Positions 11,341 through 33,354 of a stretch of DNA of 64,000 nucleotides are shown piece after piece. Under the pieces are notes generated by a model that searched no databases, was not told where the DNA came from, and worked only from the letters and a program-made list of their open reading frames with translations. The stretch comes from a virus (lineage: Duplodnaviria; Caudoviricetes): the IMG/VR virus record IMGVR_UViG_3300029288_000118, positions 1 through 64,000 of that record; one strand, written 5' to 3'. The position numbers and the translations under genes are program-made. Within the stretch, counting starts at the first letter, position 1; the number at the start of each line of letters is the position of its first letter.

Positions 11341-11862
11341 TTGGATACAACGACACATAAGGAATTAGTTCAAGTAGCTGTTAGCTGGTTGAGGAATATC
11401 ATGAGGTGCGGAGTGGTATTCAAAGAATTTAAGACAGCTATTTCAGAGATACCGGACGCGTTTGGGCTGAAAAGCGATTATAGTATACTCATTGAGTGCA
11501 AAGCATCTCGTGCAGATTTTTTGTCAGACAGAAGTAAGGTATTCAGACAGTTACCAGATCGTGGAGTGGGAGACTTTAGGCTATACCTATGCAACACGGG
11601 GATAATAAAACCAGAAGACTTGCCGGACAAGTGGGGATTATTGTATTATGATCAAATAAGAAATAAAGTAGATCGTATAAAAACGCCGAAAGGAAATGCC
11701 TGGTTACATTCGGGGGAACTATTCAGATTTGATAAGAACAAGAGAGCTGAGTACCGATATATGTATAGTGCTCTGAGAAGGATCGTGATACACGGAGACC
11801 TGGACTTAATTTACGAACCAATAGATATCAGGAAGGTATACGAAGCAAATGGTAGAGTATAA
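11341..11862 (+). CDS. PD-(D/E)XK nuclease-like protein (MmcB-like)
   Basis: EIPDAFG...LIECKASRADFLSD...GDFRLYL...DLPDKWGLL. Confidence 0.75.
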   Translation: MDTTTHKELVQVAVSWLRNIMRCGVVFKEFKTAISEIPDAFGLKSDYSILIECKASRADFLSDRSKVFRQLPDRGVGDFRLYLCNTGIIKPEDLPDKWGLLYYDQIRNKVDRIKTPKGNAWLHSGELFRFDKNKRAEYRYMYSALRRIVIHGDLDLIYEPIDIRKVYEANGRV

Positions 11863-12991: not shown

Positions 12992-13717
12992 ATGCCAACA
13001 CCAGACGAAACGAACATCCCTTATAAACCTTCAATTGAAGAAATTGAAAAACTAAAAGATGCTGGGTATCTACTGGAGATCAAGCCAGATGGATCAGTAA
13101 TGATAAGCGGAGCTACTGTATTAACAAAAGAAACCAAAGACCGTTTATTAAAAATGTCAGCAGATTTAGCAACTGCCTGTTTCAATGCAAAAAATTATAA
13201 CAAGCAGTTTTCTGCCGAATGGGCAAAGTATGAAATTCCAGATGATACGCCATTTGTGCATCGATGTGATTTTCTCAGGGCGGTGATATTAGAAGTTGGC
13301 AAAGATGTTTTATCATTAAAAAAGCATAAAGATATTGATATTGACTCTCCGGAAAAAGTGGAACCTCTTGGAGAGATAATGGCCAACATCATGCTTGCCT
13401 ACCGTCACCTGGAAGATGCAAGAATGAGAATAGGCAAAGTAATTCAAGCCTATGAAGGCGGGACATCTAAATATGATCGATTTGAATATTGCAATATATG
13501 GGTAAACAATATTCCTATTCAATGGACCGCGAAAGAAATATCCTATGAAGAAATCATACGGCTGGCGGGATTAGAATCTGACGGGAATCTCGAAGTGAAA
13601 TATACTCATGGAGCATTCTTTGATAAAGCGGGAGAAATACCTAAAGAGTATGGAGAAAAGAAAAAGGTACACTTAGTAGACGGTATGGTATTTACAGTGC
13701 AACCTAAAAATAAATAA
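12992..13717 (+). CDS. Fusion of helical hairpin (Acb2/Tad1-like?) and C-terminal multi-ubiquitin-like domain
   Basis: LAYRHLEDARMRIGKVI; C-terminal IWVNN..IQWTAKEISYEEIIRLAG...VKYTHG...VHLVDGMVFTV. Confidence 0.6.
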   Translation: MPTPDETNIPYKPSIEEIEKLKDAGYLLEIKPDGSVMISGATVLTKETKDRLLKMSADLATACFNAKNYNKQFSAEWAKYEIPDDTPFVHRCDFLRAVILEVGKDVLSLKKHKDIDIDSPEKVEPLGEIMANIMLAYRHLEDARMRIGKVIQAYEGGTSKYDRFEYCNIWVNNIPIQWTAKEISYEEIIRLAGLESDGNLEVKYTHGAFFDKAGEIPKEYGEKKKVHLVDGMVFTVQPKNK

Positions 13718-15548: not shown

Positions 15549-18500
15549 ATGAATACACTATATTTTGCCAAGTCCACGAGTGGAATGATTCACAGGGGAA
15601 GCGTTCTCACTCCCGAACCAACTGCCAGCAATCAAACACCAGTTATAGCCAAAGATTTTGAGACTTTCCAGCATGGAGAAGATTTATATCTTCTTGCGGA
15701 TAAGGAACCGCTGGAATTTATTGGATCTCTCCAAACGTCGACCGGCCAGGAATATTATTTCCAAAAGTCAAATATCACATATCGATATAACTCCAATTTT
15801 GAGCTGATAGAACTGAGTCCTAATTGGCTTAAAAAGGGAATAGCAACAAACAAAGGGATAGTAATTGAACTCGGTGACGATCTGGCGATCTGCAAAAACG
15901 GTGAAGGTGAAAAGCTATATTTTAAAAAATCATTACTCCCGATAGAAACCAACCTGGAGTTAGCACTGCAAGAGAATGAAGCAATAATCTACAGAGCAAG
16001 ACTCCATAAGTCTTTAACAGCAACGACACCGGAGATAAAGCAAGGAGCACCTAAATTCAGGGTATCGTTTGCCAGCCCGAAAGCCCAGATAGTACCTACG
16101 CAGGAACACACCGAAGGTGAAACGCGACAGTTTGGTCCTAATGATCTCCGGCAACTATCGAGAGGTAAAGCCGGACAATTAAGATGGCTCAGTATTGACG
16201 AAAAGGCGAAACTCCAGCAAGCCAAACAGAAAGCACAGGCAGAAGAAAGTAAGCAAAAAGAAAGGACAAAATATGCTGAAGGTATTAATACTGGTGGACG
16301 GATCGGAACACTTAGCAAGCTATTTAGAATCGGTAAAGAAATATTTGTCGGCGGAAGAAAAGCAGAAGTCATTGACTATGGAGACGATGTTATTGCGGTT
16401 AGAAAGGATGATGGAACAACTACCACTGTTAGAGCCAGTGAATATAATCCCGAACGACAGCAACCGGAAAAAGTTGTTCCAAAGAAGACAACAGAGACTC
16501 CAGAAGAACTTGCCAAAAAAGAACGGGAGACCAGAGAGGCAAAGACAAGACTTGAGACTGATATTCATTCACAGACACCGAGAAATAAATATTACGATGA
16601 GCAACAAGCGATTATCAAAGAACAAGAACAATTGCCGGAATATCAGACATTCCAGTCCGAGAACGAAAAAGAGGGATGGACGAAAGATATAGCGACACCA
16701 TTCAGATTTGTAAAGGACATTTCATTTGTATCCTCAATGGGAAACCTCCGCAGCGGGACTGCCGAGAAAGTGTGGAGACCGGAAAAGAAGGATTATGATT
16801 ATTACTTTGAGGGCGAAGGCTTTAATGTCACCTATCAGGGCAAAGATTATCGAATAGTAGGGATGGATCAAGACAAGATAGATATCAAGGATCAATTTGG
16901 AAACAAACAGACGATAAAAAACAACGAACTTGATCAATACAGGGGTCAGATAATCCTGGACGCTGAAGGCAATGCGAGAATCAAGAATATACAGGGTGAA
17001 GAATTTTCACTCGAACTTGTTGAGGGACTTAACCAGGAAGATTTATTTAAAGAAGGGATAGTCAAGATTATCAAGGATGAAGTTTGGAAATCGATCAAGA
17101 CAGGCGAAGGCGCAGTAGTTGACGATGTAAAGCTCGGTAGAATCCGGAGAGGGGTTACATTCTACAAACATGGTAACGAGGCGGGTATTATCGATGAAAA
17201 CAAACATGCGCACCAGGTAGCGAAGAACGACGTAAAGAGAGACCTACCCGAACCGGACGAAAAAATAAAAGCAATTCAAATTGAGGTAAAGAAGGAACAT
17301 CAGAAACTTGACAAACAAAATCTTGAACGACAAGACCTTGAAATTGTAAAAGCTCGAGTACTGCACGGGAATCAAAACGTGCCGTATGCACAAAAAGGCA
17401 AAGACCTTGAGCCGGAAAAATACAGAGACGTATTCGACAACTGGCTGAAAGATGGAGGAGAGGGAATAGATGAGCAGATAGCGGGAAGCTATACGAACCC
17501 TGAAGAATGGAAAGCCAACGTCTTATCACTGGCCGAAAGAATGAGAGCAGAGGATATAAAGAGAGCAAGCGAAGTTCAGGCAATGAACGATTTTGCGAAA
17601 TCCGGAGTAGTGATAGAAGCACCGAAACCCAAAGAGATTGAAGCGTATATCGAAACGGCAAAAGATATTTTGATGTCCAGGCGCAAAGACTTCTTACGGT
17701 CAAAGCAAGTAGAGAAAGACGAGGGTGCTAAATTCCAATGGGACGATCTTGCAGAGTTACCAGCAACGGAAAGCGGATCCCTTGTATCGGATAACGTAAA
17801 AGTGATAAGGGATAGCCGGAATGAATCTTACCAGGTGCAATATGCTTTTGTGCCTAAACAGAATATAGTGACATCGAACGACATTTCAGGCAAAACGAAT
17901 CCTGAGCATCCAAGTGAATTACAAGCGAGAGAACGCAGTCAGGATGAAGCCAGTACCTTACAGATGAAAAAAATAGCTGAGAATCCGAACGAAGAGCTGG
18001 TAGAGGATAATAAGGATGCAACGAGAGGTGCACCAGTAGGCTTTACGAAGGACGGGAAGGTTTATATCGTGCAGGGCAATGGCCGTACTGGAGCTGTATT
18101 GGGTATGGAAGGAGCTGGCAAGGAAAAATATTTTGGAATGATGTTGCAGAAAGCTCAAGAACTTGGAATTCCAACCGATAAGGTCACAGATGATATGATG
18201 CTGGTTAGAACTTTATCTCCGGTCCATACATACGAGGATGCCCGTAAGCTCGGTGCATTCGGTCAGAAGTCTTCAGCATTGCCCATGACAGAGGTAGAGG
18301 AAGCCCGCAGTTTTCAGAATGCGCAGCGGTTAAAATTTGGATTGAACCTGAATCTTACGGGAATCGGTCGACGGTCAATAAACGAAAAGAATGTAGGAAC
18401 ATTTATTCGTAACAATCCGCAGGTATATCAGAAGATACTCAAACTCAGTGGTTACGATCCGATAGCGGTTCAATACCGGCCAGCGGAACAAGCAAAGGTA

Positions 18501-21500
18501 GTCAATACTGCATTACTTGCTCAATTGGATAAAGATTTTATACGCACGGTGAGTAAAAAGGGAGAAGACACACACGAACTCGTGAAAGTGACCGCACCGA
18601 TCATAGCAGATAATCAAAAAGATATCGCAGAAGGCAGTGTGCCACCTAATGGTGATATCCAGAAATTTTTAAAGAATGCCATTGATCATTATGGTACGTT
18701 GAATAGCACGGTAAAGAACTCTTTGAAAGTAGACAAGAACGGCAATATACCATTCCTGGAGACCGGAGAGCAAGGGCGCAAGAATCCGGATAGCCTTATA
18801 TCTCGGATGAGACAAGAAACAATCGAATTCGGGGACAAGAAAAGCGGTAACATATTCCGGAATCCAGTGAACGTTATTGGAATGATTGCTTATCATCAGG
18901 CAATGACTCCCAGAGATCCAGAGAAAAAAGATCAAGCGCGGGAATTATTCGCGCTGAAGATGAAGCGATTCGCGGACGCGATGAAGACACTTAAAGAGAA
19001 GGCGCAACAAGGCGGGGATATATTTGCAGCCCAGTTGAGCGAAGAAGAGCAAACGCGACAACAGCAGGAAGATATCATTAAAATAGCAGAGAGAGTATTC
19101 CTGGAGAATAAGCCTTACCGGGAAGAAAACCCAGAGGAAATGACAGCAGAAGAAAAAGAAGCTGGCAAAGAGACGTATAATGCATTTAATGTCTACAAAC
19201 GGATGAGAGATGTATCACAGGAATTTCAGTTTGAATTAGAACACCACAAACTCAAAAAATCGTTGTTAGGATACTTCTTTAAGTCTATTATCCAAAAGCA
19301 ACACGGTGAATTAAAGCAGTTCAAAACGGATCAGATGAATCTATTTGGAGCACCGGAGGAAAAGCATAATATAGGGGACATAAAGATAGAGAACGGAATT
19401 AAATATACTCTGCTTGAGACTACGATAGGAAAGCCCAGATGGCATACTGAAGCCGAGATAGAGGCGATGAAGAAACAGAAACAAATTCAACCGAAGCCAG
19501 AAGAACATAAACCCGAAACAAAGCCAGTCTCTAAAATTCCATTCACCAAACTGAAACCTGAAGTAAAACAGGAACCGCAGCAATCCAAAAGAGCAAAAGG
19601 GGAATTCTATAAAGTAGATGATGATATTGTAGGTGAAATTCATAAGATGGAAGGATTTAACGATACTCACGGTATTAATGCAAACGTATTCGCAGAGAGA
19701 GTTGAAGTAATCAAAGGATTCTCAAAAGAGAAAAGATATTTCCCGCAGATAAAAGACTATGAGAATGAAGAGACAATCACAATAGGCGATACAAGGAAAG
19801 GCTATAAATCTCTTTCAGAAGCAAAAAAGGCATTGAAAGAAGAACTTGCAACCTATCTTAAAAACAATGCTGAGAATATTAAAAAGCATTATGGAAGCGA
19901 GTATGTTGAAATCAAGTCAGAAGATAAAGAGGAAAAACCAACGTCAAAACCGATTCGCACTGAAGCATATCGGAAGAGACAACAAGATATTGACAATATG
20001 AAAAAAGGGGTTGAAATAACGAAAGATCATATTGAATCACTTACCGATGCCGTAGAAAATCCAGCATGGGAAGCATCGAGGAAAGAATATCCTGAGAGGG
20101 CAGAAGATTTTATTAAGCAGTTAAAGGAAGCGAAAAAAACACTTGCAAAAGAGGAAAAGGAATTAGCAGAGATAGAGAAGGTTCATGCGAGAGAAACCGA
20201 AATAGAAAACAGGCAGGAACCACTATTTGCAGAAAAGCAAAAAGCGGAAGCGCAGGCAAAGAATAAAAAATTATCAGGCGAGTTATTATCTGAATTCAAA
20301 GACGGTAAATATTCAGGGGTAGAGTTTAAAGCACTTGGGATTGCTAAAGATATTAAAGAATATAAATGCTCAATGATTATCGGAAAGAAGCTGGACGCGA
20401 AAAATAATAGCGAAAAACTAAAACAGCTTGCAGCACTCTCGCAGATATACCGGGATCCAAGATTTGAGACATTCAGAATAATATATACAAAGGGAGATAA
20501 GATAGTTGGACACACGGGGATTACTTTAAGACTTCCAGGTTCGACCTTGATAGTCCCGCCAAATATAAAAGGCAAAGATGTCTATAAACACTATCAAATA
20601 GAGATGGAGAATCTGAAAGCCGATGGAATGTACTTTGTGCATAATCATCCTTCTGGTCATGTCACACCGTCTATACATGATATTACGGCAACAAAAGAAA
20701 TAGCAAAGAACTTAGGAGATAAATTCAAAGGGCATGTAGTAATAGATTCCAATATTTACTCAACGATTGATAAGGACGGATATGTTGACGAGGAATTAGC
20801 TATACCCACCGAAGAAGAAAAAGAAGATGTGCTGACAACGCCAAGCATTCCGCACGATATTTTAGGGGAAAAGATTTTTGATCCCGCTGGGATAGCGACA
20901 ATAATGAGAAAACACAAATTGGACATAGAAGATGGAAAAAGCAAAATAGTAATAGCATTGGATGCGTATAATAAGATTAGAGGAATAATAGTGGTAGATA
21001 AATATCTACTGCTTGATAAAGAGAAAGCGAAAGACATATTAAGGAGAATATCAGTCCAGTCTGGATGTCAATCTCTGTTTATCGCGGGTATTGAAGATCA
21101 GTATAACAAAGAAGAAGATTTTACTTCCAGTAATGCCAATATCAGAGATTTATATAAAGAGAATTTTATACTCGATGTTGTTTCAAAAAGAGGGAATTCA
21201 TTAATGATGGGGACGGGAATTATGAGGAATCCCGACAGTGATCCATTCGGAGTTAAAGAGGAATCAAGGCAACTTGTGAAGTCAATCTTCCGATTCTTTA
21301 AGTCTCAAATGGATATGTTTGGAGCACCGAAGCAACCGACACAGCCAAAACCTGAAGGTGGAATATCCTGGAAAGCGTTAGGACAAGAAAAACCAGGACA
21401 TAAATACATACGCAGGGAAAGAGGCAAGACTGGAGAATGGGTATACTACTACAAGGACGCACAAGGCAGGGAATTCAAGGGAGACGCGAAGGGCAAAGAG

Positions 21501-22964
21501 CTTTCGAAACATCATGACTGGAATAAAGGTGATGTAGTTATACACGACGGCAGAAAGTATGAGCTTGGTAAATTCGGCGATACAATGGCAACCATTGTTA
21601 GTCAAAAAGGAGAAGTCAAAGCTGTGAGGATAGCCGAACTCACGCACGAAGCCGAACACCAAAAGAAATTAGTGACCGAACACGAAACCAAATGGGATAG
21701 ATTAGTATCAGCATTGGAAGCGGATGTAGCACAATTTGACAAAACTGGAAAATCTATAAACTTCCCAGAAGACAAGAAATTTGAATTGCAACGAAAGTTA
21801 AAATATGCAAAAGAAGAAAGAGATAAGAGAAAAGTTAACAAACAGAATTCCCCCAACGTCGCTTCCGACGACGTTATCCCCAGCGAACCTGGTTTGGTCC
21901 CTGCAACCAAGCCAGGTTCTTCCTCTAAGAAAGTAGATCAGACCGAAACGCCAGAATTCAAGAAGTGGTTTGGAGATAGTAAAGTAGTTGATAAAGAGGG
22001 AAAGCCGAAAGTAGTATATCATGCCTCTACTGAGAACTTTAAGGAATTTGATACAAGTGCAGAGGGAGCACATTTCGGGACTGAAGAACAAGCGTTAAAT
22101 CTTAAAAAAGCCGGAAAGAAAAAACCAAAGGCATTCTATCTTTCTATAAATAATCCCTTACGCATGGATGATGTTGGAATATGGAATGATTTTAATGGAA
22201 TCCATGCCAGACTCGCGAACGAAGATAAAATAACAGCAAAAGAAGCAGATGAAATATGGGATGAATGGCAAAAAACCGATGAGAAAGGATGGAGTAAACT
22301 TAAAGAAGTTTTGAAAAGAAAAGGTTATGATGGATTCGTTTATGCAAATGAGCAAGAAGGTGAAGGCGATTCTTATGTAGCCTTCTCTCCAGAACAAATT
22401 AAATCAATTGAGAATAAAGGAACATTTGATCCCAACACTGGAGACATAACGAAATCCGTTTCAACCTTTTTTAAGCAACTTACCAAAGCCCGTAAAGAGA
22501 CCGATACCGAACCTACTGAAGCACAGAAAGAAGCCGGAAATTATGCAAAAGGCAAATTAGAACTTTATGGGTTAACTATCAGTATAGAAAATCCGAAGGG
22601 AAGTATTCGTAGAGGAAAAGATAAAAATGGCACTCCCTGGAAATGCAAACTTAGAAATGATTACGGATATATACTCGGTACGGTAGGAAAAGACAAGGAT
22701 CATCTCGATGTATTTTTAGGTAAAGATATTAATGCTAAGAATGTCTATATCGTGAATCAACAAGACCCAGAGACAAAGGCATTCGATGAACACAAAATAA
22801 TTCTATTAATGCCAAACAAAAGAAAAGCCATCAAGGCATATAAATCAAATTATGCAGACGATGCAAGCAAAAGGATAGATAGTGTTACTGAAATGACCAT
22901 TGAAGAATTTAAAAAATGGATTGAGAACGGAAATCATAAAGAGAAAGCAATAGTCCAGTGTTAA
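15549..22964 (+). CDS. Giant polyvalent protein: ddrB-like ParB, JAB/RadC-like, ART-PolyVal and inorganic pyrophosphatase-like domains
   Basis: ParB: HPSELQARERS...GAPV...QGNGRT (~17830-18300); JAB: E...HNHPSGHVTPSIHD (~20420-20790); ART: TPEFKKWFGDSKVVD...VYH...GYDG...QIKS (~21940-22450); InPase: PTEAQKEAGNY...IENPKGS...YGYI...DHLDVF...FDEHK (~22490-22960). Confidence 0.85.
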   Translation: MNTLYFAKSTSGMIHRGSVLTPEPTASNQTPVIAKDFETFQHGEDLYLLADKEPLEFIGSLQTSTGQEYYFQKSNITYRYNSNFELIELSPNWLKKGIATNKGIVIELGDDLAICKNGEGEKLYFKKSLLPIETNLELALQENEAIIYRARLHKSLTATTPEIKQGAPKFRVSFASPKAQIVPTQEHTEGETRQFGPNDLRQLSRGKAGQLRWLSIDEKAKLQQAKQKAQAEESKQKERTKYAEGINTGGRIGTLSKLFRIGKEIFVGGRKAEVIDYGDDVIAVRKDDGTTTTVRASEYNPERQQPEKVVPKKTTETPEELAKKERETREAKTRLETDIHSQTPRNKYYDEQQAIIKEQEQLPEYQTFQSENEKEGWTKDIATPFRFVKDISFVSSMGNLRSGTAEKVWRPEKKDYDYYFEGEGFNVTYQGKDYRIVGMDQDKIDIKDQFGNKQTIKNNELDQYRGQIILDAEGNARIKNIQGEEFSLELVEGLNQEDLFKEGIVKIIKDEVWKSIKTGEGAVVDDVKLGRIRRGVTFYKHGNEAGIIDENKHAHQVAKNDVKRDLPEPDEKIKAIQIEVKKEHQKLDKQNLERQDLEIVKARVLHGNQNVPYAQKGKDLEPEKYRDVFDNWLKDGGEGIDEQIAGSYTNPEEWKANVLSLAERMRAEDIKRASEVQAMNDFAKSGVVIEAPKPKEIEAYIETAKDILMSRRKDFLRSKQVEKDEGAKFQWDDLAELPATESGSLVSDNVKVIRDSRNESYQVQYAFVPKQNIVTSNDISGKTNPEHPSELQARERSQDEASTLQMKKIAENPNEELVEDNKDATRGAPVGFTKDGKVYIVQGNGRTGAVLGMEGAGKEKYFGMMLQKAQELGIPTDKVTDDMMLVRTLSPVHTYEDARKLGAFGQKSSALPMTEVEEARSFQNAQRLKFGLNLNLTGIGRRSINEKNVGTFIRNNPQVYQKILKLSGYDPIAVQYRPAEQAKVVNTALLAQLDKDFIRTVSKKGEDTHELVKVTAPIIADNQKDIAEGSVPPNGDIQKFLKNAIDHYGTLNSTVKNSLKVDKNGNIPFLETGEQGRKNPDSLISRMRQETIEFGDKKSGNIFRNPVNVIGMIAYHQAMTPRDPEKKDQARELFALKMKRFADAMKTLKEKAQQGGDIFAAQLSEEEQTRQQQEDIIKIAERVFLENKPYREENPEEMTAEEKEAGKETYNAFNVYKRMRDVSQEFQFELEHHKLKKSLLGYFFKSIIQKQHGELKQFKTDQMNLFGAPEEKHNIGDIKIENGIKYTLLETTIGKPRWHTEAEIEAMKKQKQIQPKPEEHKPETKPVSKIPFTKLKPEVKQEPQQSKRAKGEFYKVDDDIVGEIHKMEGFNDTHGINANVFAERVEVIKGFSKEKRYFPQIKDYENEETITIGDTRKGYKSLSEAKKALKEELATYLKNNAENIKKHYGSEYVEIKSEDKEEKPTSKPIRTEAYRKRQQDIDNMKKGVEITKDHIESLTDAVENPAWEASRKEYPERAEDFIKQLKEAKKTLAKEEKELAEIEKVHARETEIENRQEPLFAEKQKAEAQAKNKKLSGELLSEFKDGKYSGVEFKALGIAKDIKEYKCSMIIGKKLDAKNNSEKLKQLAALSQIYRDPRFETFRIIYTKGDKIVGHTGITLRLPGSTLIVPPNIKGKDVYKHYQIEMENLKADGMYFVHNHPSGHVTPSIHDITATKEIAKNLGDKFKGHVVIDSNIYSTIDKDGYVDEELAIPTEEEKEDVLTTPSIPHDILGEKIFDPAGIATIMRKHKLDIEDGKSKIVIALDAYNKIRGIIVVDKYLLLDKEKAKDILRRISVQSGCQSLFIAGIEDQYNKEEDFTSSNANIRDLYKENFILDVVSKRGNSLMMGTGIMRNPDSDPFGVKEESRQLVKSIFRFFKSQMDMFGAPKQPTQPKPEGGISWKALGQEKPGHKYIRRERGKTGEWVYYYKDAQGREFKGDAKGKELSKHHDWNKGDVVIHDGRKYELGKFGDTMATIVSQKGEVKAVRIAELTHEAEHQKKLVTEHETKWDRLVSALEADVAQFDKTGKSINFPEDKKFELQRKLKYAKEERDKRKVNKQNSPNVASDDVIPSEPGLVPATKPGSSSKKVDQTETPEFKKWFGDSKVVDKEGKPKVVYHASTENFKEFDTSAEGAHFGTEEQALNLKKAGKKKPKAFYLSINNPLRMDDVGIWNDFNGIHARLANEDKITAKEADEIWDEWQKTDEKGWSKLKEVLKRKGYDGFVYANEQEGEGDSYVAFSPEQIKSIENKGTFDPNTGDITKSVSTFFKQLTKARKETDTEPTEAQKEAGNYAKGKLELYGLTISIENPKGSIRRGKDKNGTPWKCKLRNDYGYILGTVGKDKDHLDVFLGKDINAKNVYIVNQQDPETKAFDEHKIILLMPNKRKAIKAYKSNYADDASKRIDSVTEMTIEEFKKWIENGNHKEKAIVQC

Positions 22965-23497
22965 TTTTTATATCCATTCTTAATAAGATATTGACGTATA
23001 GTTGGAGGAGAGACATTACATCTTCTCGCAATACGATTCATAGGGATTTGTTTCTCGAACAAATCTATACACAATTTGACATTCCATTTAGGATTCCCCC
23101 ATCTTGGATTATTTGTCCCCAATCCTTTTCTTTTAAATACCCTTTGAATAGATCCACCAGTAACATTAAAAATCTTGCCTATTTTCTCAAAAGAATAACC
23201 CATCTTTCTAAGTTTTACAGCTTTCTCAAGAGACCATTTTCTTCTCTCACCATCGTGTATATAAGACATATGATAAGATTGGTTTGTTATTTCAAGATTA
23301 TCAATAGAATTATTCAATCCATTTTCATCTTTGTGGTGAACTATTTCTGTTCTCAAAAGAGGACGGCCAAGATATTTTTCCATAATCAATCGATGCTCAA
23401 AACGTTGTCTTCGTATGCCATCAATATAAACGCTAACCAATCGATAGGATGTTTTATGATTAGGAAATTTTCTAATATGATTAATTTTTCGAGGCAT
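22961..23497 (-). CDS. HNH homing endonuclease with C-terminal HTH repeats
   Basis: EHRLIMEKYLGRPL...EIVHHKDENGLNNSIDNLEI; two HTH-like segments. Confidence 0.85.
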   Translation of the reverse strand: MPRKINHIRKFPNHKTSYRLVSVYIDGIRRQRFEHRLIMEKYLGRPLLRTEIVHHKDENGLNNSIDNLEITNQSYHMSYIHDGERRKWSLEKAVKLRKMGYSFEKIGKIFNVTGGSIQRVFKRKGLGTNNPRWGNPKWNVKLCIDLFEKQIPMNRIARRCNVSPPTIRQYLIKNGYKN

Positions 23498-23562
23498 AAT
23501 ATTCTCTCTTTGTTTGATGAATCCAATGTAATGATAAGTTTTTTAAACTGCAAAAGACCACA

Positions 23563-23868
23563 ATGAAACCAATTAGTTCATATCCGAAGCAAGAACATCA
23601 GCCAGGATTCGTAGTGTGGGAGCTGGATCATCAGGACGGTCAGCGTAGACTCGAATTCTTTTGTGAAGCCTGTGGCTATAATCATTTTTTTGATGAACGC
23701 TGGATGTGGAATGGTGATTATGTGAAACCGACGTTTTATCCAAGCCTATTGGTCAACGGTCATACTCCGAGCATGAAATGTCATAGTTTTGTGACCGACG
23801 GCGAAATTCATTACCTGGCTGATTGTTTTCACGGTTTTAAAAATCAGCGTATACCGCTAAAACCATAA
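23563..23868 (+). CDS. DUF6527 family protein
   Basis: FFCEACG..H...WNGD..KPTFYPSLL...CHSFVTDGEI..LADC.H. Confidence 0.75.
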   Translation: MKPISSYPKQEHQPGFVVWELDHQDGQRRLEFFCEACGYNHFFDERWMWNGDYVKPTFYPSLLVNGHTPSMKCHSFVTDGEIHYLADCFHGFKNQRIPLKP

Positions 23869-23873
23869 TACAA

Positions 23874-24059
23874 ATGAAGAAAGTAAACAACATACCTAAG
23901 CAAGCAACGGAGACAAAAACATGTGTATGTAAACAACCAGAATTTGCATTCAAAACACCGTCGATGAAAACAGACGGAACTTATTTCCAATATTGTAAGA
24001 AGTGTCAGAAATTTAGAGATGTGCCAAAACCCAAGCAAGGTAGAGAATTAATATTTTAG
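23874..24059 (+). CDS. Small zinc-ribbon protein
   Basis: CVC...YCKKCQK. Confidence 0.5.
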   Translation: MKKVNNIPKQATETKTCVCKQPEFAFKTPSMKTDGTYFQYCKKCQKFRDVPKPKQGRELIF

Positions 24060-24070
24060 AGGATATCACC

Positions 24071-27000
24071 ATGAGTAATATTCCATTTAATTATTTAAAA
24101 GTATCACAAACACAGTATGAGATGCCAGAGCCAAATAATATATGGAGATTTTTAAAAAGCCAATTAGGCTTATTTGCTGGATCTCCGCAAAAGCAAGCTC
24201 CGATGCCGGCCAAACCTAAAAATATTCCATTTGCATCTCAAAAGCCGAAAGAAAGTCCTAATATCGGAGACGTGAAAGTTGAAGGTGATCATAAATATAT
24301 ATTTTTGGAAACGACTATTGGCAAACCGAGATGGCATACTCATGAAGAACTTCTCCAGATGGTAAAAGAGGGCAAACAGGTACCCGAGATAGCAAAAAAG
24401 AAAATGCCAATGCTTCAAACGCGGGAAGAAAGCAAGAAACCCGTTTCGATCACGGGCGAAGAAATCAAAGTAGGAGATTATATCTATTATGGGAGAGATC
24501 CACGAGAACAAGGATTCAGCGAAAAGCAAATAAAACCGCATGAACTAAAAAAGGTAACGGGGTTTAAAGATATCGGTGGAGGGATACATCCTACCTGGAA
24601 GCCGGATAAAAAAGTTAATAAATATGATAAAGGCTATAATTTTTCCGCAAAAGAATACAGCATCATTAAGGACGCAGAAAAATTTATAAATCCAGATAAA
24701 TCGAAAAAAGAAGACGAGACTAAACAAGCGATGGAATTAGGCAAGAAAGCATTTCAAGCTGGAGGCATACGCACTCCCAGCCTTGACAAAGAATTAATGA
24801 AGATGCTTGAAGGTGCGCAGGTAGGTGAAAAAACTCATGTGCTGGAAGCCTGGAATAAGGGTTGGGATCAGGAAAATCTCAAAAAGCCAGAAGAAGAACC
24901 GAAGCAAACTGAAATCCCATCTGAGAAACTAAGCAAACCGAAATTATCCGCTGAAGAACAATATGTCCAAGATCAAATTAAAAAGGGAGACCTGGAAACG
25001 GCTATTAAACGACAACAGGGAATGAGAAAAACTGAATATACTGAAGACCAGCAAGCTAAAATAAATGATCTCAATAAGTTGATGCAACGTAGAGCGCAAC
25101 TCCAAAGAGAGATAGATGCACCGTTGACAGCAGTTAAAGACGTAGAAAAAGGTGGTCAGAAATTTGAGGTTGACACCAAAAAATATGCAAAGAGGGAAAT
25201 GAAGTATCTTGACAAGCGTATAGGTGCATTAAAGCAGGAACTTGGAAAACTGGGAGAAAACTTATTTGAGACTCAGGAAGACATATTCTCACAGGCAACT
25301 CCAGAGCCGAAAGATCAATTATCAGAGAATATCAATAAGCAAGTAGAAGAACAAAAGAAAAAGGAAGCACCGTCTTTAAAAACCCTAATGGCTACACAAT
25401 CGGAAGTATTAAAACTTGCAGCAATACCAGAAGAAGATATACCGATGTACGCGTTAAACTCTATGGCCGATGGAGCAAAATTACGATCGTACTCTACTGA
25501 AGTTATCAAGGGAGAAATCACGATTCAACAGGCAGCGGACAAGGTGAAGAATGACTATACAAAGATGAAAGAGGGGGAGAAGCCAACAAATGTTGCTCCG
25601 TTACCGTCGACGGAGAAAAAAGAAATATGGCAAATGACGAAAAACGAATATGCAAACAGTAAAGAAAACTTAGACGAGTACACTGACGCAATAAAAAATC
25701 CACCATTAGCAGGCGAAGGCACTATGGAAAGAAGTGCTGGAATTTTAGGAGCAAGTAAAGAAGAGGCAATTAAGAGCGGTGAACGTATGCACAAGATGGA
25801 AGTAAAAAATGCACTTAAAGAAGGGAAAGAAGTTCCATCTGAAGTTCTTAAAGATTATCCAGAACTTGAAAAAGAATATAAAGATACTCTCCCTCTCCGG
25901 CCAGAGGATAAGGATTCCAAAGAAGGGGATATCAAGACTATCAATGGAATTCAGTATCAATTGAAGCGCGGTGAAAGCGGTGAACTCCGGTGGCATAGGG
26001 TAACAGGAAAAGAGGAAAAAGAAGCATGGCAGACAGGAAGGGACGAATATGCTATTTCCAAAAATTCTCCAAAACCTGAAATAGAAATAGGAGACATTTC
26101 TTTCCATCAGTTAAGTAAGATGTCAGAAAGAGCTAAAGCAGAAACGACGAAAAAGCGAGTAGCCGAACGAAAAATAGCAAAAGAAAAATACGATAATGCA
26201 ACTAAAGAGTGGGAGGACAAGATATGGGATGCTTATCGGCAAGGAAAATTTTCGGCAAACGATGTTTATGATACAGACGCATTTTATGTATTAAATGAAA
26301 GATTAACAAAAGAAGGTATAGACATTGACTCTCCATTCAAGATAAGCCAGAAAAACGAAGATGAAAGATCAAAATATTTGTCAGGGATTGACAATACTGC
26401 AAAAGGTAAATTTACAGAAAAGCAATCCGAACCCGTTGTAATCCCGCGTCAAGAAGCCATCGAAGAGCATGAGCATTTAATGGAAGTACTCGAGAATGGA
26501 ACTGAAGAAGAACGTAAAGCAGAGGCCGAAAAGCAAGCAAAAGAACTCAAAGAGTATAAGGGCGAATCGCTGAAGGAAAAAGTAGAAGAACGATTGAGTG
26601 AGAAACAAGCTGGGAAAAAATTCAAAGACGTAGGTACTCGAGTAGGCGGAAGCCGGAAAGAGATTGCCGCAATTCGAGTATTGACCGCAGGTGATCTGGA
26701 TAAACTTGATAATGCTACAGCTTACAGAGTAGTAACGAAAGAAAGAATATTACCAGATATTAATCCTCAAGCAGAGAAGGATAATGGAGTAGAGAGTGGA
26801 GCTGCATACATGAAGAAGAAACTCCGTGAATCTGTAAATGCCAAACCGCCTAATACCCCAGAAGACCGAAAGAAATTTGTTGAACTGACTCCAAAGATAT
26901 TTGAGAAAATCGATGCAGCAAAAACAATTGAAGATATTCGTACGATCGGCAACGAAGACTTTGAGACATTTATGGACTGGGGAAGCCGTAAGCGTGTAAC

Positions 27001-28627
27001 TTTTTATAAGCATGAAGATTATAAAAGCGATGTAAGCCGATTACTTGGCAAAGAGTTTTTAAACCTTATTGGTCGCAATAGTGATTCAGCAAAAAAGCAC
27101 TGGAGCGATGCGGTGTTAATGAATTCTTTTAACGAAGAGACGGCGAAAGAACAGTATAAAAAGTATGCTGAAGGAAGAAAAAATGTTGTTGAGATGAATA
27201 AAAAACGGATGGATGAATATACAGCGGAACAGTGGGAGCGTTATTTTAAGACGGATCCGATGACAACGATGTCATTTACGAGGAAGCAACTTACAAGTGA
27301 AAAACAAAACAATCCTGAGAAGTACCAACAAGCTATCGAAGATTATAAGGCAAGAGAATATAAATCGAATGAACGGCGAAACGAACCAATTACTTATGAA
27401 GAGTGGTTGGATAAGAGACCACAATATAAACCGAGAGAAGCTGACTGGAGCTGGGCGGAGGCTAAAGATAAAAAAGTTATTGAAAGACGTAAAGCGGAAT
27501 TAAAGATACATGATAATCCGCCTTTGGCGTTTATCAAGCGCACAAATGGAAGACAAGTGCTTAATTCAGATATCACGGTAGAAGCGATAAAAGATAAATA
27601 TGGATTTAAGAGCGTTCAATTTGGCCACTATGTTAAAGATGTTGAAGCTCAGGAGCATGTGAGACACTTTATTGAGAGCATGAATGATCTGGAAGATGCA
27701 CTGGGAATTGATATAAAAAAAATGAATCAACTTTCAGGACTGAGTATAGCGTTTGGTGCACGGGGTTCCGCAGGAGCACTTGCTCATTATGAACCGATGG
27801 CCAAGATAATAAATATCACTAAGACCAGAGGTGATGGAACGATATGCCATGAACTATTCCACAACATTGATCATCTATTAGGCGGGATGGAAGAAGGCAC
27901 AAGAAAAGAGAAAATTTATCTCTCTCAACAAGGAATTGGGGGTTACGAACGAACAAAAGAGAACGACATACTAAACAAGCGCAAACTCCGAGTAGCAATG
28001 AACGATGTAATGAATGCTATTAAAAAGGGAACAAACGAAAAGAAACTTAATTTTGAACCAGGCGGGAATAAATATACATACGGGAGTATAAGAAATAAGT
28101 TTGAAACCGAAGGATATGAGGCAACGAGAGAATACCTAATGAAATATGCGAAGGATCCAGATGAGCTTGGAAGAGCTGAAGACTATTTTAAATATCTTTC
28201 GACATTGGCAAATAAACCAATTGAAGTAATAATACCTACCGGACGAACAAAATATTATGATTCAGCAATGCAGTTTAACAGTAAATACTGGCAAAGGGAT
28301 CAAGAACTATTCGCGAGAGCAGCGGAGGCGTACGTGCAAGATAAATTAATAGGGAGCAGGATGTATAATAACTACCTGGTAGCTGGTAACAATATTCAAC
28401 AACCGGACAAAAAATGGGAATCTGGATCACTGGAAATCACTTATCCGCAGGGAGAGGAAAGAGTGATTATCAATGAAGCGTTTGACAAGCTCCTGGAAAC
28501 AGCGAAAAGCGAACTGAATATTGGATTAGAAAAGAAAAGGGAAGGTAAAAGAGTATCGAGCGAAGTACAGATGCAAAAGAGTTTATATAATCCAAACATT
28601 TTTAAATCACTCTTCAGGAGAATATAA
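24071..28627 (+). CDS. Large polyvalent protein: LPD5-like, zincin metallopeptidase and LPD1-like domains
   Basis: FKDVGTRVGGSRKE; YGFKSVQFG...LSIAFGARG...AHYEP...HELFH; YW...ELFARAAEAYV...YPQGEER. Confidence 0.8.
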   Translation: MSNIPFNYLKVSQTQYEMPEPNNIWRFLKSQLGLFAGSPQKQAPMPAKPKNIPFASQKPKESPNIGDVKVEGDHKYIFLETTIGKPRWHTHEELLQMVKEGKQVPEIAKKKMPMLQTREESKKPVSITGEEIKVGDYIYYGRDPREQGFSEKQIKPHELKKVTGFKDIGGGIHPTWKPDKKVNKYDKGYNFSAKEYSIIKDAEKFINPDKSKKEDETKQAMELGKKAFQAGGIRTPSLDKELMKMLEGAQVGEKTHVLEAWNKGWDQENLKKPEEEPKQTEIPSEKLSKPKLSAEEQYVQDQIKKGDLETAIKRQQGMRKTEYTEDQQAKINDLNKLMQRRAQLQREIDAPLTAVKDVEKGGQKFEVDTKKYAKREMKYLDKRIGALKQELGKLGENLFETQEDIFSQATPEPKDQLSENINKQVEEQKKKEAPSLKTLMATQSEVLKLAAIPEEDIPMYALNSMADGAKLRSYSTEVIKGEITIQQAADKVKNDYTKMKEGEKPTNVAPLPSTEKKEIWQMTKNEYANSKENLDEYTDAIKNPPLAGEGTMERSAGILGASKEEAIKSGERMHKMEVKNALKEGKEVPSEVLKDYPELEKEYKDTLPLRPEDKDSKEGDIKTINGIQYQLKRGESGELRWHRVTGKEEKEAWQTGRDEYAISKNSPKPEIEIGDISFHQLSKMSERAKAETTKKRVAERKIAKEKYDNATKEWEDKIWDAYRQGKFSANDVYDTDAFYVLNERLTKEGIDIDSPFKISQKNEDERSKYLSGIDNTAKGKFTEKQSEPVVIPRQEAIEEHEHLMEVLENGTEEERKAEAEKQAKELKEYKGESLKEKVEERLSEKQAGKKFKDVGTRVGGSRKEIAAIRVLTAGDLDKLDNATAYRVVTKERILPDINPQAEKDNGVESGAAYMKKKLRESVNAKPPNTPEDRKKFVELTPKIFEKIDAAKTIEDIRTIGNEDFETFMDWGSRKRVTFYKHEDYKSDVSRLLGKEFLNLIGRNSDSAKKHWSDAVLMNSFNEETAKEQYKKYAEGRKNVVEMNKKRMDEYTAEQWERYFKTDPMTTMSFTRKQLTSEKQNNPEKYQQAIEDYKAREYKSNERRNEPITYEEWLDKRPQYKPREADWSWAEAKDKKVIERRKAELKIHDNPPLAFIKRTNGRQVLNSDITVEAIKDKYGFKSVQFGHYVKDVEAQEHVRHFIESMNDLEDALGIDIKKMNQLSGLSIAFGARGSAGALAHYEPMAKIINITKTRGDGTICHELFHNIDHLLGGMEEGTRKEKIYLSQQGIGGYERTKENDILNKRKLRVAMNDVMNAIKKGTNEKKLNFEPGGNKYTYGSIRNKFETEGYEATREYLMKYAKDPDELGRAEDYFKYLSTLANKPIEVIIPTGRTKYYDSAMQFNSKYWQRDQELFARAAEAYVQDKLIGSRMYNNYLVAGNNIQQPDKKWESGSLEITYPQGEERVIINEAFDKLLETAKSELNIGLEKKREGKRVSSEVQMQKSLYNPNIFKSLFRRI

Positions 28628-30293: not shown

Positions 30294-31802
30294 ATGGACG
30301 AACAAAATAAATACTTCAGAATTTTTGGCTTTTTAGACAAACTTGAAAAATCCATTCCCGCTTCATCCTCAATCGATAAAGAAGGAGTTATAATCGAAGG
30401 TAGATTCATGAACGCCGTCCACGACATCTCTGGAGAGAGGCCGATTATACCGGAGATGATCTGGGATATTCTGAAGAAATCAGGGAATATCAAATACGAA
30501 CATGATCCGTTATCAGTCAAGAAAATGTCGGACGGGACATTGATGGCAGTAGCTCAGGCAAATCCAGGAAATATTATCGGAGTTCCACTTAATATAAAAA
30601 CAAGTGCTGATGGCAAACAAGCATTTTTTAAAGCAACTCTATTCCCGGAAAACGATCTCGTAAAATCATTGATAAAAAAAGCGAAAGAATTTGACGAACA
30701 TAATAAACGCTATCCGAACAATCAAAGACATTTTCAATTATCGGTTGAGGGCAAATATTACAAGAGAGACAAACTGACAAAAACTTACGCAGGTATTGCT
30801 GAGAATATAGTTATATCCCCGCAAGCTCAGGATGAAAGCACATATTTTCATTTTGTAAACGCGGAAAATCTTGCAATGGCAAAATCTCTTGCAGCGGGCA
30901 CGGAAACAAATATAACAAACATGAAAAATGGTGATTCATTACGTCAAGAAAGTTTAGAAGGCAATAATAAATCAAATTCAAGGAGAAAAAAAATGAACAA
31001 GCTTGGAAAAAATCGTGACGAAGTATTCTCGCACTTCCGAAAATCATGCGGGACACAAAAAGAAGCACAGGAAAAAACCGACGAATATATGAGAGAGCTG
31101 GAAACGGAACGAAATAATTCCGGCACTTCATTTGCGAAGAGTCTGAATGATGGAATTGATAAAATTAAAAAATCCATCACTGATTTTGCCGGGATTGAAA
31201 CCATAATTGCGGCCAAACAGGCGGATGTTGTAAAGATAGACACGGAGATGAAGAAATCTATCAACACACTCAGAGAGGATCCGGAGAAATTCAGCGGTGA
31301 ACAATTTATGCAACAACAGACCGCTGCAACAGTTGCGTTCGGCACAAGCCTAAACGAAGTTCAATCTCAGTTAGTAAAATCGTTGGCGACACTGGCTGAA
31401 GGTCTTGCAGATGTTCTTCCATTGCTGAAAGATATTCATTCAATGACATCCGATGCCGTTGAACAAGCGGCAGACGCGAATGAGGCAGTAAGGTATATTG
31501 CGCGTGGGCTGAAAAAATCACATCAAGGCTTTACCCGTTCAATCGATGCACTTGAACCGATGAACGGCGGAGACAAGCCCAATGCAGAAAAGATTTTGAA
31601 ATCGATCAACACAAAAGCCGTTGAGCGTTACCTGGTAGATAAATTTGTTGCCAACCAGGCATCACCAGCGATTGCCCAGCAGTACGATGAGGCATATAAC
31701 CAGCTCAACCGTATGGGTCGTGATGCGTTCGGAGCGATGAACAAATCCATTGTCTCGGAAATTGTACAGGTATTTGAAGCGCAATTTACCGATGTTCAGT
31801 AG
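30294..31802 (+). CDS. Prohead protease fused to scaffold
   Basis: DISGE...IKYEH...IIG...QLSVEG; helical C-terminal half; directly upstream of capsid gene. Confidence 0.8.
   Translation: MDEQNKYFRIFGFLDKLEKSIPASSSIDKEGVIIEGRFMNAVHDISGERPIIPEMIWDILKKSGNIKYEHDPLSVKKMSDGTLMAVAQANPGNIIGVPLNIKTSADGKQAFFKATLFPENDLVKSLIKKAKEFDEHNKRYPNNQRHFQLSVEGKYYKRDKLTKTYAGIAENIVISPQAQDESTYFHFVNAENLAMAKSLAAGTETNITNMKNGDSLRQESLEGNNKSNSRRKKMNKLGKNRDEVFSHFRKSCGTQKEAQEKTDEYMRELETERNNSGTSFAKSLNDGIDKIKKSITDFAGIETIIAAKQADVVKIDTEMKKSINTLREDPEKFSGEQFMQQQTAATVAFGTSLNEVQSQLVKSLATLAEGLADVLPLLKDIHSMTSDAVEQAADANEAVRYIARGLKKSHQGFTRSIDALEPMNGGDKPNAEKILKSINTKAVERYLVDKFVANQASPAIAQQYDEAYNQLNRMGRDAFGAMNKSIVSEIVQVFEAQFTDVQ
30993..31802 (+). 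CDS. Nested in-frame scaffold protein
   Basis: AGGAG at 30981-30985 followed by in-frame ATG at 30993. Confidence 0.55.
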   Translation: MNKLGKNRDEVFSHFRKSCGTQKEAQEKTDEYMRELETERNNSGTSFAKSLNDGIDKIKKSITDFAGIETIIAAKQADVVKIDTEMKKSINTLREDPEKFSGEQFMQQQTAATVAFGTSLNEVQSQLVKSLATLAEGLADVLPLLKDIHSMTSDAVEQAADANEAVRYIARGLKKSHQGFTRSIDALEPMNGGDKPNAEKILKSINTKAVERYLVDKFVANQASPAIAQQYDEAYNQLNRMGRDAFGAMNKSIVSEIVQVFEAQFTDVQ

Positions 31803-31866: not shown

Positions 31867-33354
31867 ATGAATAATGAGTTCAGTTATCCCGATGCGTTGG
31901 ATCTGGGCGTATCTTCAGGCGGAGGATTCTCTGGAATTCCTGCCGATAATTACGGTTCCCTTTTCCGAAGCAAAAGTCCTATGAGAGCGATACAAGAAGC
32001 TCTCGAAAAATCGCTTACCGCAGGTTATGAAACGAATCTACCGTCAATGTCCGGCGGTGGTGCGATGCGTATTGAATCGCTTGAGCCGAATCTCACGAAA
32101 CTGATTTATGACGACAAATCGACAGCACTCTTTAACGATCTGCTTGCTACAAAGCAGAAAGCGAAATCCACGATTGAACAATATACGACATGGGATTATG
32201 TAGGTGAAGCTGCTACATTTGAAGAAGGCGGAGCACCGTCTTATGAAGATGATGGCTATACCAGACATGTTATGCCCGTGAAGTATGTCGGTGCAATCGG
32301 GAGAGTTACAAATCCGATGCGGGAAGTGGAAGCGATTGTTGAGCCAGAGGCTCAGGAAACAAAAGCGAAGATGCTGGCAATCAAACGTAAAGCAAATCAG
32401 GTATGTTACTTCGGTGATGCGACAGCGGTACCGACAGAATTTACCGGATTATTTCCCGCAGTGAGAGACGGCGCGTATGCGACAACGAACATCATTGATC
32501 TGCAAGGTAAACGATTAACCCTTGAAAACGTAAACGCAGGTATTGCAGCACTTGAGGATCAGAAAGGATATTGCACGAGTCCACGAATGTATATTTCTCC
32601 GCAGGCGCGGATGAATTACAAGAATGAACTCTTGAAAAACAAGTACTACATCGTAAACGGCGTTCAATCGACGAGAGAAGATATTGAAAATGCATTACAA
32701 GGGCTGGGTAAAAACCAGATCGCTTATGACGGCGGTGAAATTCCATATCGGAAAGACATCTTCTTGAATCCCCGTAAATATCCACGTAGAAATACAGCGG
32801 GTAATGCCTTTATTGCAACCGGATCCACTCCGCCAGCAACACCGACGATCACGAGCGCAACGCCAACAGTAGATGCGACATCCTCGATTCCGGCCGGAGA
32901 TTACAATTATGCAGTTGTAGCAGTTAACAAATACGGTCAAAAATCAGCACCAGCAGAATCCGGGAAAGTAGTAGTAGCAGACGGTGAGAGCGTTGTGTTC
33001 GTGTTGGCAGATGGTGGAAGCACATCTGGTCTTGAAGCAACCGCATGGGAAATTTACCGTCGAGCTGATGGTGGTGGAGCAACGGATTATCGGTATTTAT
33101 TTACCGTAGCAGTTGCCAGCACACCGATAACGGATAAAAATGCATACATGCCGGATACTTCGATCATTCCGTTAGTTGATTTTGATCTGGACGAAGTGTT
33201 GATTTACAAACAATTGCTTGATGCTGCCAAATTCCCGCTTGCGACAACAGTGGATGCGATTCAATGGCTTCAGAGGTTGTATGGAGTGCTGATCATAAAG
33301 AATACACGGCGTATCGTGATATTCATTAACGCAGGTTCAACCGCAGCCTCTTAA
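31867..33354 (+). CDS. Major capsid protein (SPO1/A511-like)
   Basis: KSLTAGY...AMRIESLE...FGD...EFTGL...IIDLQG...LYGVLII. Confidence 0.9.
   Translation: MNNEFSYPDALDLGVSSGGGFSGIPADNYGSLFRSKSPMRAIQEALEKSLTAGYETNLPSMSGGGAMRIESLEPNLTKLIYDDKSTALFNDLLATKQKAKSTIEQYTTWDYVGEAATFEEGGAPSYEDDGYTRHVMPVKYVGAIGRVTNPMREVEAIVEPEAQETKAKMLAIKRKANQVCYFGDATAVPTEFTGLFPAVRDGAYATTNIIDLQGKRLTLENVNAGIAALEDQKGYCTSPRMYISPQARMNYKNELLKNKYYIVNGVQSTREDIENALQGLGKNQIAYDGGEIPYRKDIFLNPRKYPRRNTAGNAFIATGSTPPATPTITSATPTVDATSSIPAGDYNYAVVAVNKYGQKSAPAESGKVVVADGESVVFVLADGGSTSGLEATAWEIYRRADGGGATDYRYLFTVAVASTPITDKNAYMPDTSIIPLVDFDLDEVLIYKQLLDAAKFPLATTVDAIQWLQRLYGVLIIKNTRRIVIFINAGSTAAS

Follow-up and report, generated by a model that had tools for sequence, protein, structure and literature searches.

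A conserved two-part peptide tag on the polyvalent proteins of an uncultured phage and its possible role in capsid loading

The Polyvalent Genes and Their Q Motifs

The DNA considered here (the window) is the opening 64 kb of an IMG/VR virus record of 93,986 bp (IMGVR_UViG_3300029288_000118, denoted G000) that is 100% complete according to CheckV. All genes in the window are on the plus strand, and two giant open reading frames (ORFs), located between the portal and capsid genes, encode polyvalent proteins of 2471 and 1518 residues (PV1 and PV2; Table 1). Both carry short peptides of the form Q-φ-x-φ-F (where φ is hydrophobic and x is any residue), which an earlier note on this DNA had taken for motifs that bind the bacterial β sliding clamp, DnaN, and that maturation would leave at new N-termini. 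These Q motifs form the second half of a two-part tag. The tag is conserved and confined to polyvalent proteins, and it is located at protein N-termini and at the joints between cargo cassettes.

The three strong motifs were found in frame where the earlier note had placed them: QMNLF starts at residue 1262 of PV1, 15 residues after the sequence FFKS (residues 1243–1246), while FFKS-QMDMF and FLKS-QLGLF have their Gln at residue 1920 of PV1 and residue 31 of PV2, respectively. The pattern Q[LM]x[LM]F occurs only these three times in the ≈19,400 residues of the window ORFs, all in PV1 and PV2. Shuffling of the two proteins gave an expectation of 0.04 motifs, and none of 5000 shuffles reached three.

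Two weaker peptides, QEPLF (20214) and QEDIF (25274), are also present at the positions noted earlier, but their clamp-like status fails across homologues. The Gln of QEDIF is not conserved, since homologues have HEDMF, EEDMF, KSSLF or DDDLF at this site, and QEPLF, which has an acidic residue at position 2, is matched in homologues only by QDPLF. The QEDIF region itself (PV2 residues 390–420; 25240–25330) contains a second conserved linker peptide, [ED][ED]-[IML]-F-S-Q followed by KPKDxLSExxNKK, which is common to the homologues (EEDMFSQ, HEDMFSQ, DDDLFSAS).

PV1 and PV2 have the properties of polyvalent proteins, with several effector domains per polypeptide (ddrB-ParB, RadC, ART-PolyVal, InPase and LPD1) and a location in the head module. 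In both respects they resemble the phage-type polyvalent proteins described by Iyer, Burroughs, Anand, de Souza and Aravind (2017; PMC5512222), which were predicted to be packed in the head and injected. PV1 and PV2 are probably injected as well. Text searches of that study gave no mention of a sliding clamp, linker, spacer or conserved peptide.

Architecture of the Tag

The tag unit starts with an aromatic, amphipathic leader (φ-F-x-x-φ-F-K-K-S), continues with Q-φ-x-φ-F-G and a Pro/Lys-rich linker of 8–55 residues, and is usually followed by a small β mini-domain with the signature GKPRWH. Three such units are present in the window, two at internal junctions of PV1 and one near the N-terminus of PV2. 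At the first junction, where 11 residues separate the leader from FKTD-QMNLF, the homologues have FK[ST/VA]x-Q[MGQ]x[LM]FG, and a second complete phage, G001, has AKGK-QLGLF. The second junction tag gave the top match to a hidden Markov model (HMM) of the tag (23.1 bits) and is kept in P0015, P0022, P0074 and P0079; behind it come a Pro/Lys/Gln-rich tether and then a GHKYIRRE domain. The PV2 tag is kept in P0004–P0011 and in the PV2 of G001.

Isolated elements resembling the leader were also seen. PV1 begins with MNTLYFAKS, an aromatic-x-K-S element with no Q motif behind it; the form MNxLYFAKS is kept in P0015, P0022, P0074 and P0079 and not in G001. PV2 ends in an aromatic and basic peptide, NIFKSLFRRI, which is leader-like and may be a docking helix; its homologues end in FFETYFRRLR, FFDKFFQRIK and VFEAFFRRLR. 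Finally, the sequence STFFKQLTK between the ADP-ribosyltransferase (ART) and InPase domains of PV1 (residues 2305–2313; 22461–22487) has an FFK leader followed by QL, with neither the Ser nor the LF anchor, and looks like a decayed tag.

The mini-domain comprises about 45 residues (IGDxKxEdGxxYIFLETTIGKPRWH) and is present in three copies in the two giant proteins, the third of which is divergent and has no Q motif in front of it. PV2 residues 1–110 were modeled with AlphaFold2 from a 10-sequence alignment. The model has a helix over the leader (residues 21–29), coil with a predicted local distance difference test score (pLDDT) of 55–62 through QLGLF and the linker, and a mini-domain of three strands and a helix at pLDDT ≈90. 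The low confidence of the coil is not proof of disorder. A fold search with the mini-domain returned weak, chromodomain-like best matches (Z 2.0–2.4), which is not evidence for a new fold, and neither the tag nor the mini-domain matched a Pfam family, even at E ≤ 5.

Three other descriptions of the tag were considered and rejected. With as many as three glycines in a stretch of seven residues, and with coil in the AlphaFold2 model, a single amphipathic helix is unlikely to run on through the Q half. A ubiquitin-like, LRGG-type cut after F-G-G does not agree with the variation of the second Gly (FGA, FAG, FGE, FTA). By eye, there is neither the hydrophobic core nor the A-x-A site of a Sec signal peptide.

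Table 1. Coordinates and assignments of the tag elements and the genes around them.
Feature	Position	Strand	Basis or remarks
Portal protein	6483..8201	+	phrog_11117, phrog_15361
MuF-like gene	11849-12979	+	Upstream of PV1; weak Pfam match
PV1, polyvalent protein 1 (P0001, 2471 residues)	15549..22964	+	Pfam; PHROG matches to DarB-like and minor head proteins
PV1 domains	residues 757-888 (ddrB-ParB), 1689-1739 (RadC-JAB), 2148-2290 (ART-PolyVal), 2324-2459 (InPase)	+	Pfam
PV1 N-terminal leader, MNTLYFAKS	15549..15575	+	Aromatic-x-K-S element, no Q motif behind
Junction tag 1, KSLLGYFFKS, 11 residues, FKTD-QMNLF-GAP	19257..19355	+	Q motif 19332-19346
GKPRWH mini-domain, copy 1 (IGDxKxENGxxYxxLETTIGKPRWH + helix)	19371..19469	+	Alignments
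Junction tag 2, KS-IFRFFKS-QMDMF-GAP	21279..21329	+	Q motif 21306-21320
PV2, polyvalent protein 2 (P0002, 1518 residues)	24071..28627	+	Zincin motif and LPD1
N-terminal tag 3, NNIWRFLKS-QLGLF-AGSP	24134..24187	+	Q motif 24161-24175
GKPRWH mini-domain, copy 2	24263..24361	+	AlphaFold2, three strands and helix
Divergent mini-domain, copy 3 (EGDIKTINGIQYQLKRGESGELRWHRV)	25922..26002	+	No Q motif before; kept in P0005-P0008
PV2 HExxHxxD zincin motif	27848-27871	+	
PV2 LPD1 domain	residues 1403-1481	+	Pfam
PV2 aromatic-basic C-terminus, NIFKSLFRRI	28595..28624	+	Tag-leader-like
Probable prohead protease (N-terminal ~180 residues) fused to coiled-coil scaffold	30294..31802	+	
Major capsid protein	31867..33354	+	phrog_752, E 1e-58

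Homologues and Conservation

Homologues were collected from an index of 5.8 billion proteins, a profile search of 1.84 billion representatives, metagenome contigs, the phage G001 (94,259 bp, with terminal repeats), and a related prophage in G002, an Ignavibacteriota metagenome-assembled genome (MAG), where it lies on a contig of 1.19 Mb. The profile search gave 23 matches that carry the complete module; these ≈23 representative clusters all appear to belong to one phage lineage with one type of protease–scaffold protein. Within G000 and G001, the tag HMM matched the polyvalent proteins and no others, and a degenerate DNA pattern identified a single viral contig, again G001. No relatives were found among 50,697 cultured phage records, searched with DNA and with the tag-region protein, or in 72,556 plasmids, where a copy of the tag would have spoken against a function in the capsid. 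A single-protein scan of IMG/VR gave no match, and a match at an Eggerthellaceae locus (L011) proved to be spurious.

The three strong motifs are kept in every homologue found. Copies of the tag were selected by the pattern Q-x-x-[LMIV]-F with hydrophobic and basic residues in front of it, giving 38 distinct copies (37 under the filter used for the bracketing analysis below); the invariance of Q, position 4 and F is therefore not evidence, because the copies were chosen by that pattern. At position 2, Leu (14) and Met (12) predominate over Gln (3), Gly (3), Pro (3), Ile (1) and Phe (1). Position 3 is variable, with Gly (17), Asp (9), Ser (5), Asn (3), Ala (2), Glu (1) and Thr (1). Outside the motif, Gly is found at +5 in 26 copies, Phe at −4 in 26, Lys at −2 in 29 and Ser at −1 in 23. 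Divergent orthologues have QLSLF, QLDLF, QAGLF, QMALF or the six-residue forms QLGLAL and QLGLDF at the motif site.

The Q half is kept where K-S is replaced by RKG, RKN, KGA, RKD, KTD or KVA, and also where 2–7 residues are inserted between the two halves. The interpretation in the earlier note is supported in part: a lack of conservation in homologues would have refuted it, and the motif proved to be the best-conserved part of the tag. In roughly one-third of the copies the Ser is replaced or the spacing differs, so a new N-terminus at the Q motif would not be general. Cleavage after K-S at the tags is itself a prediction.

Eight of the copies are found within the first 23 residues of a protein, and the remaining copies lie at joints between cargo modules. 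G001 lacks exactly PV1 residues 1269–1925, the block between the two PV1 tags, indicating that the tags mark cassette joints. The tagged cargo is diverse and includes LPD1/peptidase, 2H phosphoesterase, SNF2/DarB-like helicase, LPD5, InPase, zeta toxin (a kinase), ART and RadC modules, and one tagged protein, P0011, is a DarB-like methylase-helicase.

The Ignavibacteriota relative (L010; contig C13, 13.5–29.8 kb) has a GC content of 60% and lies near the end of the 1.19-Mb contig. Its polyvalent genes appear to be split by frameshifts, which reflect errors of assembly or else decay. A PV1 fragment with 98% identity (P0013) is labelled Candidatus Omnitrophica in NCBI, so that host assignment from binning is inconsistent.

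The Protease–Scaffold Gene

The gene directly before that of the major capsid protein encodes a probable prohead protease fused to a scaffold. The ORF gave a weak match to the head-maturation protease family phrog_1028 (E 1.4e-4), and a profile search of the PDB sequences with it found nothing. The N-terminal 222 residues were modeled with AlphaFold2 at a pLDDT of 62; T4 gp21 (5JBL) accounted for the top three Foldseek matches (E 3.8e-4, with the next match at 0.044), with TM scores of 0.3–0.47, on a model of mediocre quality. The capsid protein is 27% identical to those of SPO1-like and Bacteroides DAC phages.

The dipeptide K-S occurs 13 times in the protease–scaffold protein against 3.6 expected, a 3.6-fold enrichment (P < 0.001). 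K-S is also enriched in the homologues from G001 and G002, and several sites align across the three phages, the protease–scaffold proteins of which share just 32–39% identity. From this enrichment, a cut after K-S is plausible, and the K-S dipeptides of the scaffold are candidate self-cleavage sites of unusual specificity. The next residue is L, I, F, H or V, and none of these sites precedes Q-φ-x-φ-F.

Hydrophobic-(x)-K-S is enriched twofold in PV1 (15 sites against 7.5 expected, P = 0.005) and is not enriched in PV2. In front of the aromatic leader, 20 of 37 copies carry a second [KR]-S; together with the eight N-terminal tags, 28 of 37 leaders are thus bracketed in the manner of excisable peptides. 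An FRSKS sequence in the capsid protein is not conserved in G001.

Replication Genes

No match to the DnaN domains PF00712, PF02767 or PF02768 was found in G000, or to PF02767 or PF02768 in G001 (PF00712 was searched only in G000), which led us to reject a phage-borne DnaN-like pocket as the reader of the tag. The larger G000 ORFs screened against Pfam and PHROG, including those from 64 to 94 kb, contained neither a clamp nor a DNA polymerase. The phage thus probably depends on the replisome of its host. Beyond the window, G000 encodes a DnaD/O-like replication initiator (76156–76959) and, also between 64 and 94 kb, an SbcC-like protein, a calcineurin-like phosphoesterase, an SNF2 helicase, a PAPS-reductase-like protein, and N6/N4 and C5 DNA methylases. 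Neither the initiator nor the other phage replication proteins contain a clamp-type motif.

The Ignavibacteriota prophage shares its contig with the dnaE gene of the host. The sole Q-x-x-[LMIV]-[FL] match in this DnaE is QSSLF at residue 919, the position equivalent to the QADMF of the E. coli α subunit (residues 920–924).

Interpretation of the Tag

Several roles were considered for the Q half of the tag, foremost among them a role in the capsid and clamp binding. We tentatively favor the former, at a probability of roughly 0.4: the Q motifs would be the retained half of a tag for loading and processing polyvalent cargo in the head, with a function purely internal to the capsid. We infer packaging, cutting and the reader of the tag along the following lines. 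A lineage of contractile-tailed phages would load and process large effector proteins in the head by means of the tag. The aromatic leader at the start of each cargo module would hold the cargo on the scaffold core, and would end in a K-S cut site for the gp21-like prohead protease of the phage. The Q half would be a docking or recognition peptide, read in the prohead by the primed side of the protease, the scaffold, the portal or the MuF-like protein, and its likeness to a clamp motif would represent convergence on a generic extended hydrophobic peptide.

The leader half most likely acts like a T4 capsid-targeting sequence that ends in a protease site. As in the T4 and P1 systems, the same short leader is found at the N-terminus of unrelated proteins. 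The probable gp21-like protease gene is close by, just downstream of the polyvalent genes and with homologues in G001 and the Ignavibacteriota prophage. T4 gp21 cuts after Glu, and the presumed cut motif here is φ-x-K-S rather than the L/I-x-E of the T4 type. The present tag differs from the T4 and P1 leaders in two further ways: it recurs inside polyproteins at cassette joints, and its best-conserved part lies behind the presumed cut. Loading of unrelated proteins into capsids by N-terminal leaders has been established for the T4 internal proteins and for DarB of P1 (PMC9024508), and the tagged P0011 is DarB-like. A capsid role is also supported by the residues that are conserved yet fall outside the clamp definition (Gly at +5, Phe at −4, Lys at −2 and Ser at −1), and by the cargo behind the tag, which is of every kind and suggests a shared fate rather than a shared target. 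Further points in its favor are the restriction of the tag to polyvalent proteins, the bracketing of the leaders, the K-S enrichment in the protease–scaffold protein, the cassette joints revealed by G001, and the 11 copies that depart from the clamp definition.

Several observations weigh against this interpretation. The Q half is better conserved than the K-S site, and its survival through loss of K-S and through insertions indicates a function that is not simply that of the primed side of a cut. The scaffold K-S sites never precede Q-φ-x-φ-F, so the protease appears to need no Q half. If the leader MNTLYFAKS is by itself sufficient to load PV1, the Q half is dispensable for loading. Finally, the constancy of Q-L/M-x-L/M-F, in spite of the 32–39% identity between the protease–scaffold proteins, exceeds what would be expected for a co-evolving contact between phage proteins.

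The second interpretation, which we consider possible although somewhat less likely, is that Q-φ-x-φ-F is a true clamp motif. The leader would load the capsid and be removed, and the injected cargo would then dock through its tether on host DnaN on the DNA, placing effectors at forks and other clamp-bearing DNA or competing with the host polymerases. Clamp motifs have been defined as Q-φ-x-[LM]-[FL] or Q-φ-x-[LM]-x-[FL], with QLxLF and QLxLxF the tightest binders; the Gln and the LF pair at the end account for most of the binding, and position 3 is unconstrained (2024 review, PMC11139829). All three window motifs and 27 of the 38 copies fit this definition, and, as the review describes, position 3 is variable, with small or acidic residues, and position 2 is Leu or Met in 26 of 38. 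The earlier note had identified QLGLF as the motif of E. coli Pol II, which is borne out by the literature, as is QADMF in the α subunit (PMC5731819).

More broadly, the residue pattern and the range of variants are those of known clamp motifs (QL[SD]LF of Dalrymple, QLGLF of Pol II, QADMF of α and QLVLGL of Pol IV), including the six-residue forms seen at orthologous sites, and the setting, which here is probably flexible as well, is often near a terminus. The segment is Gly-rich, with flanks rich in Gly and Pro, is modeled as low-pLDDT coil and is followed by the Pro/Lys-rich tether. Retention of the Q half where the K-S site is lost or moved, the lack of this peptide behind the scaffold K-S sites, the absence from the screened ORFs of a DnaN domain and a polymerase, leaving only the DnaD/O-like initiator, and the position of QSSLF in the DnaE of the prophage contig are all in line with docking on a host clamp. 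Clamp motifs at the extreme N-terminus are found in TrfA-33 of plasmid RK2, where the motif is exposed by an internal start, and in Hda. They provide a precedent for motifs of the QLSLF/QLSLPL type at or near an N-terminus, although TrfA-33 and Hda are replication regulators made in the cell, whereas the tagged proteins are delivered by the virion. (The Hda motif is mentioned in PMC11139829.)

On the other hand, 11 of the 38 copies depart from the clamp definition, at either position 2 or position 4 (QGNLF, QQTLF, QPSLF, QMDIF), and in about 30% of copies position 2 is Gln, Gly or Pro. The aromatic-basic leader and the conserved Gly at +5, to which the peptide is fused here, are not features of clamp motifs. 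The tag is carried by virion cargo of all enzymatic kinds, including some with no link to DNA (zeta toxin, InPase and 2H phosphoesterase), and it adjoins a T4 gp21-like protease–scaffold gene rich in K-S, in resemblance to the T4 capsid-targeting leaders. Moreover, the complete module is rare, with about 23 representative clusters in 1.84 billion proteins, all seemingly of a single phage lineage. At a free N-terminus, Gln tends to cyclise with time to pyroglutamate, and a Q motif at a new N-terminus would therefore tend to lose the amide used in clamp binding.

Outside this lineage, a set of 114 unrelated polyvalent proteins shows an enrichment of Q-x-x-[LM]-F, with less hydrophobic flanks (90 against 52.9 expected; z 5.2, which is an overstatement, since the excess comes mostly from Q-G/R/A-x-L-F in a few conserved homologous blocks and the counts are not independent). 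The strict form, with an aliphatic position 2, is not enriched there (18 against 16.5).

A combined proposal, which extends that of the earlier note, is that capsid maturation unmasks clamp-binding peptides at the head of the injected effector modules and that each module is tethered by a flexible linker to the host clamp. It appears to us unlikely, and jamming of the replisome, as raised in the note, is purely conjectural. If the proposal were true, the virion would deliver an enzyme kit (ADP-ribosyltransferase, RadC/JAB, pyrophosphatase, peptidase and methylase-helicase) to the DNA clamp of the host, and phage cargo would constitute a new class of clamp clients with a general address system for injected proteins.

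An improbable third interpretation is that the Q half serves as a capsid-exit signal, read at ejection by the portal, the tail channel or the MuF-like protein, or by some other host partner. It would be kept on the mature cargo, at or near the N-terminus and on a flexible tether, and genes for a portal and a MuF-like protein lie upstream; nothing speaks specifically in its favor, however, and we know of no such leading-end ejection signal in any phage.

Slightly less probable still is that the motif is a cut site for the zincin metallopeptidase of PV2, cleaved inside Q-φ-x|φ-F, in which case the upstream basic residues and the hydrophobic P2 and P1′ positions would resemble sites of the lethal-factor type. 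Zincins prefer a hydrophobic P1′, and the motif is located at module joints. Iyer et al. predicted that zincin peptidases process polyvalent proteins, and described the HExxH-plus-Asp signature of phage-type metallopeptidases (PMC5512222) that is seen in PV2 as HExxHxxD, beside LPD1. However, G002 has three tagged modules and no match to the PV2 peptidase–LPD1 region (E ≤ 0.01) or to Pfam LPD1 (PF18796), unlike G000 and G001, which both match LPD1 (other peptidase clades were not searched), and at tags located at residues 11–30 such a cut would do no more than trim a short leader. Although hydrophobic peptides of this length are common, chance, or shared descent of a folded segment that has no function of its own, is scarcely credible for three motifs where 0.04 are expected, kept while the linker varies freely in length and sequence and recurring before unrelated cargo domains.

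What is known of the loading, cutting and intracellular targeting of large injected phage proteins comes mostly from T4 and P1. Short, portable and defined by its sequence, the tag shows where cargo modules lie and where they are exchanged, and it can thereby serve to recognize and delimit the injected effectors of uncultured phages. If, as we favor, the Q half is read in the prohead, it would represent a new capsid-addressing code that could be used for protein delivery. If it binds DnaN instead, the clamp would serve incoming effectors as a landing pad, a new kind of host takeover, and the tags would be a natural source of tight clamp-binding peptides.

Additional Observations

The 114 unrelated polyvalent proteins (within P0014–P0131) contain recurring linker peptides of the form Q-G-x-L-F-[SDE], such as AAAGQGGLF[DE]AP, and QG[TM][LM]FS about 10 residues before the ART start TPEF[KR]RWFG. 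In some of these linkers a further LF is found a few residues upstream, and P0067 has GQADMFG. In the window, a 241-residue ORF between the MuF-like gene and PV1 (12992–13717) gave a weak match to Multi_ubiq (PF14452).

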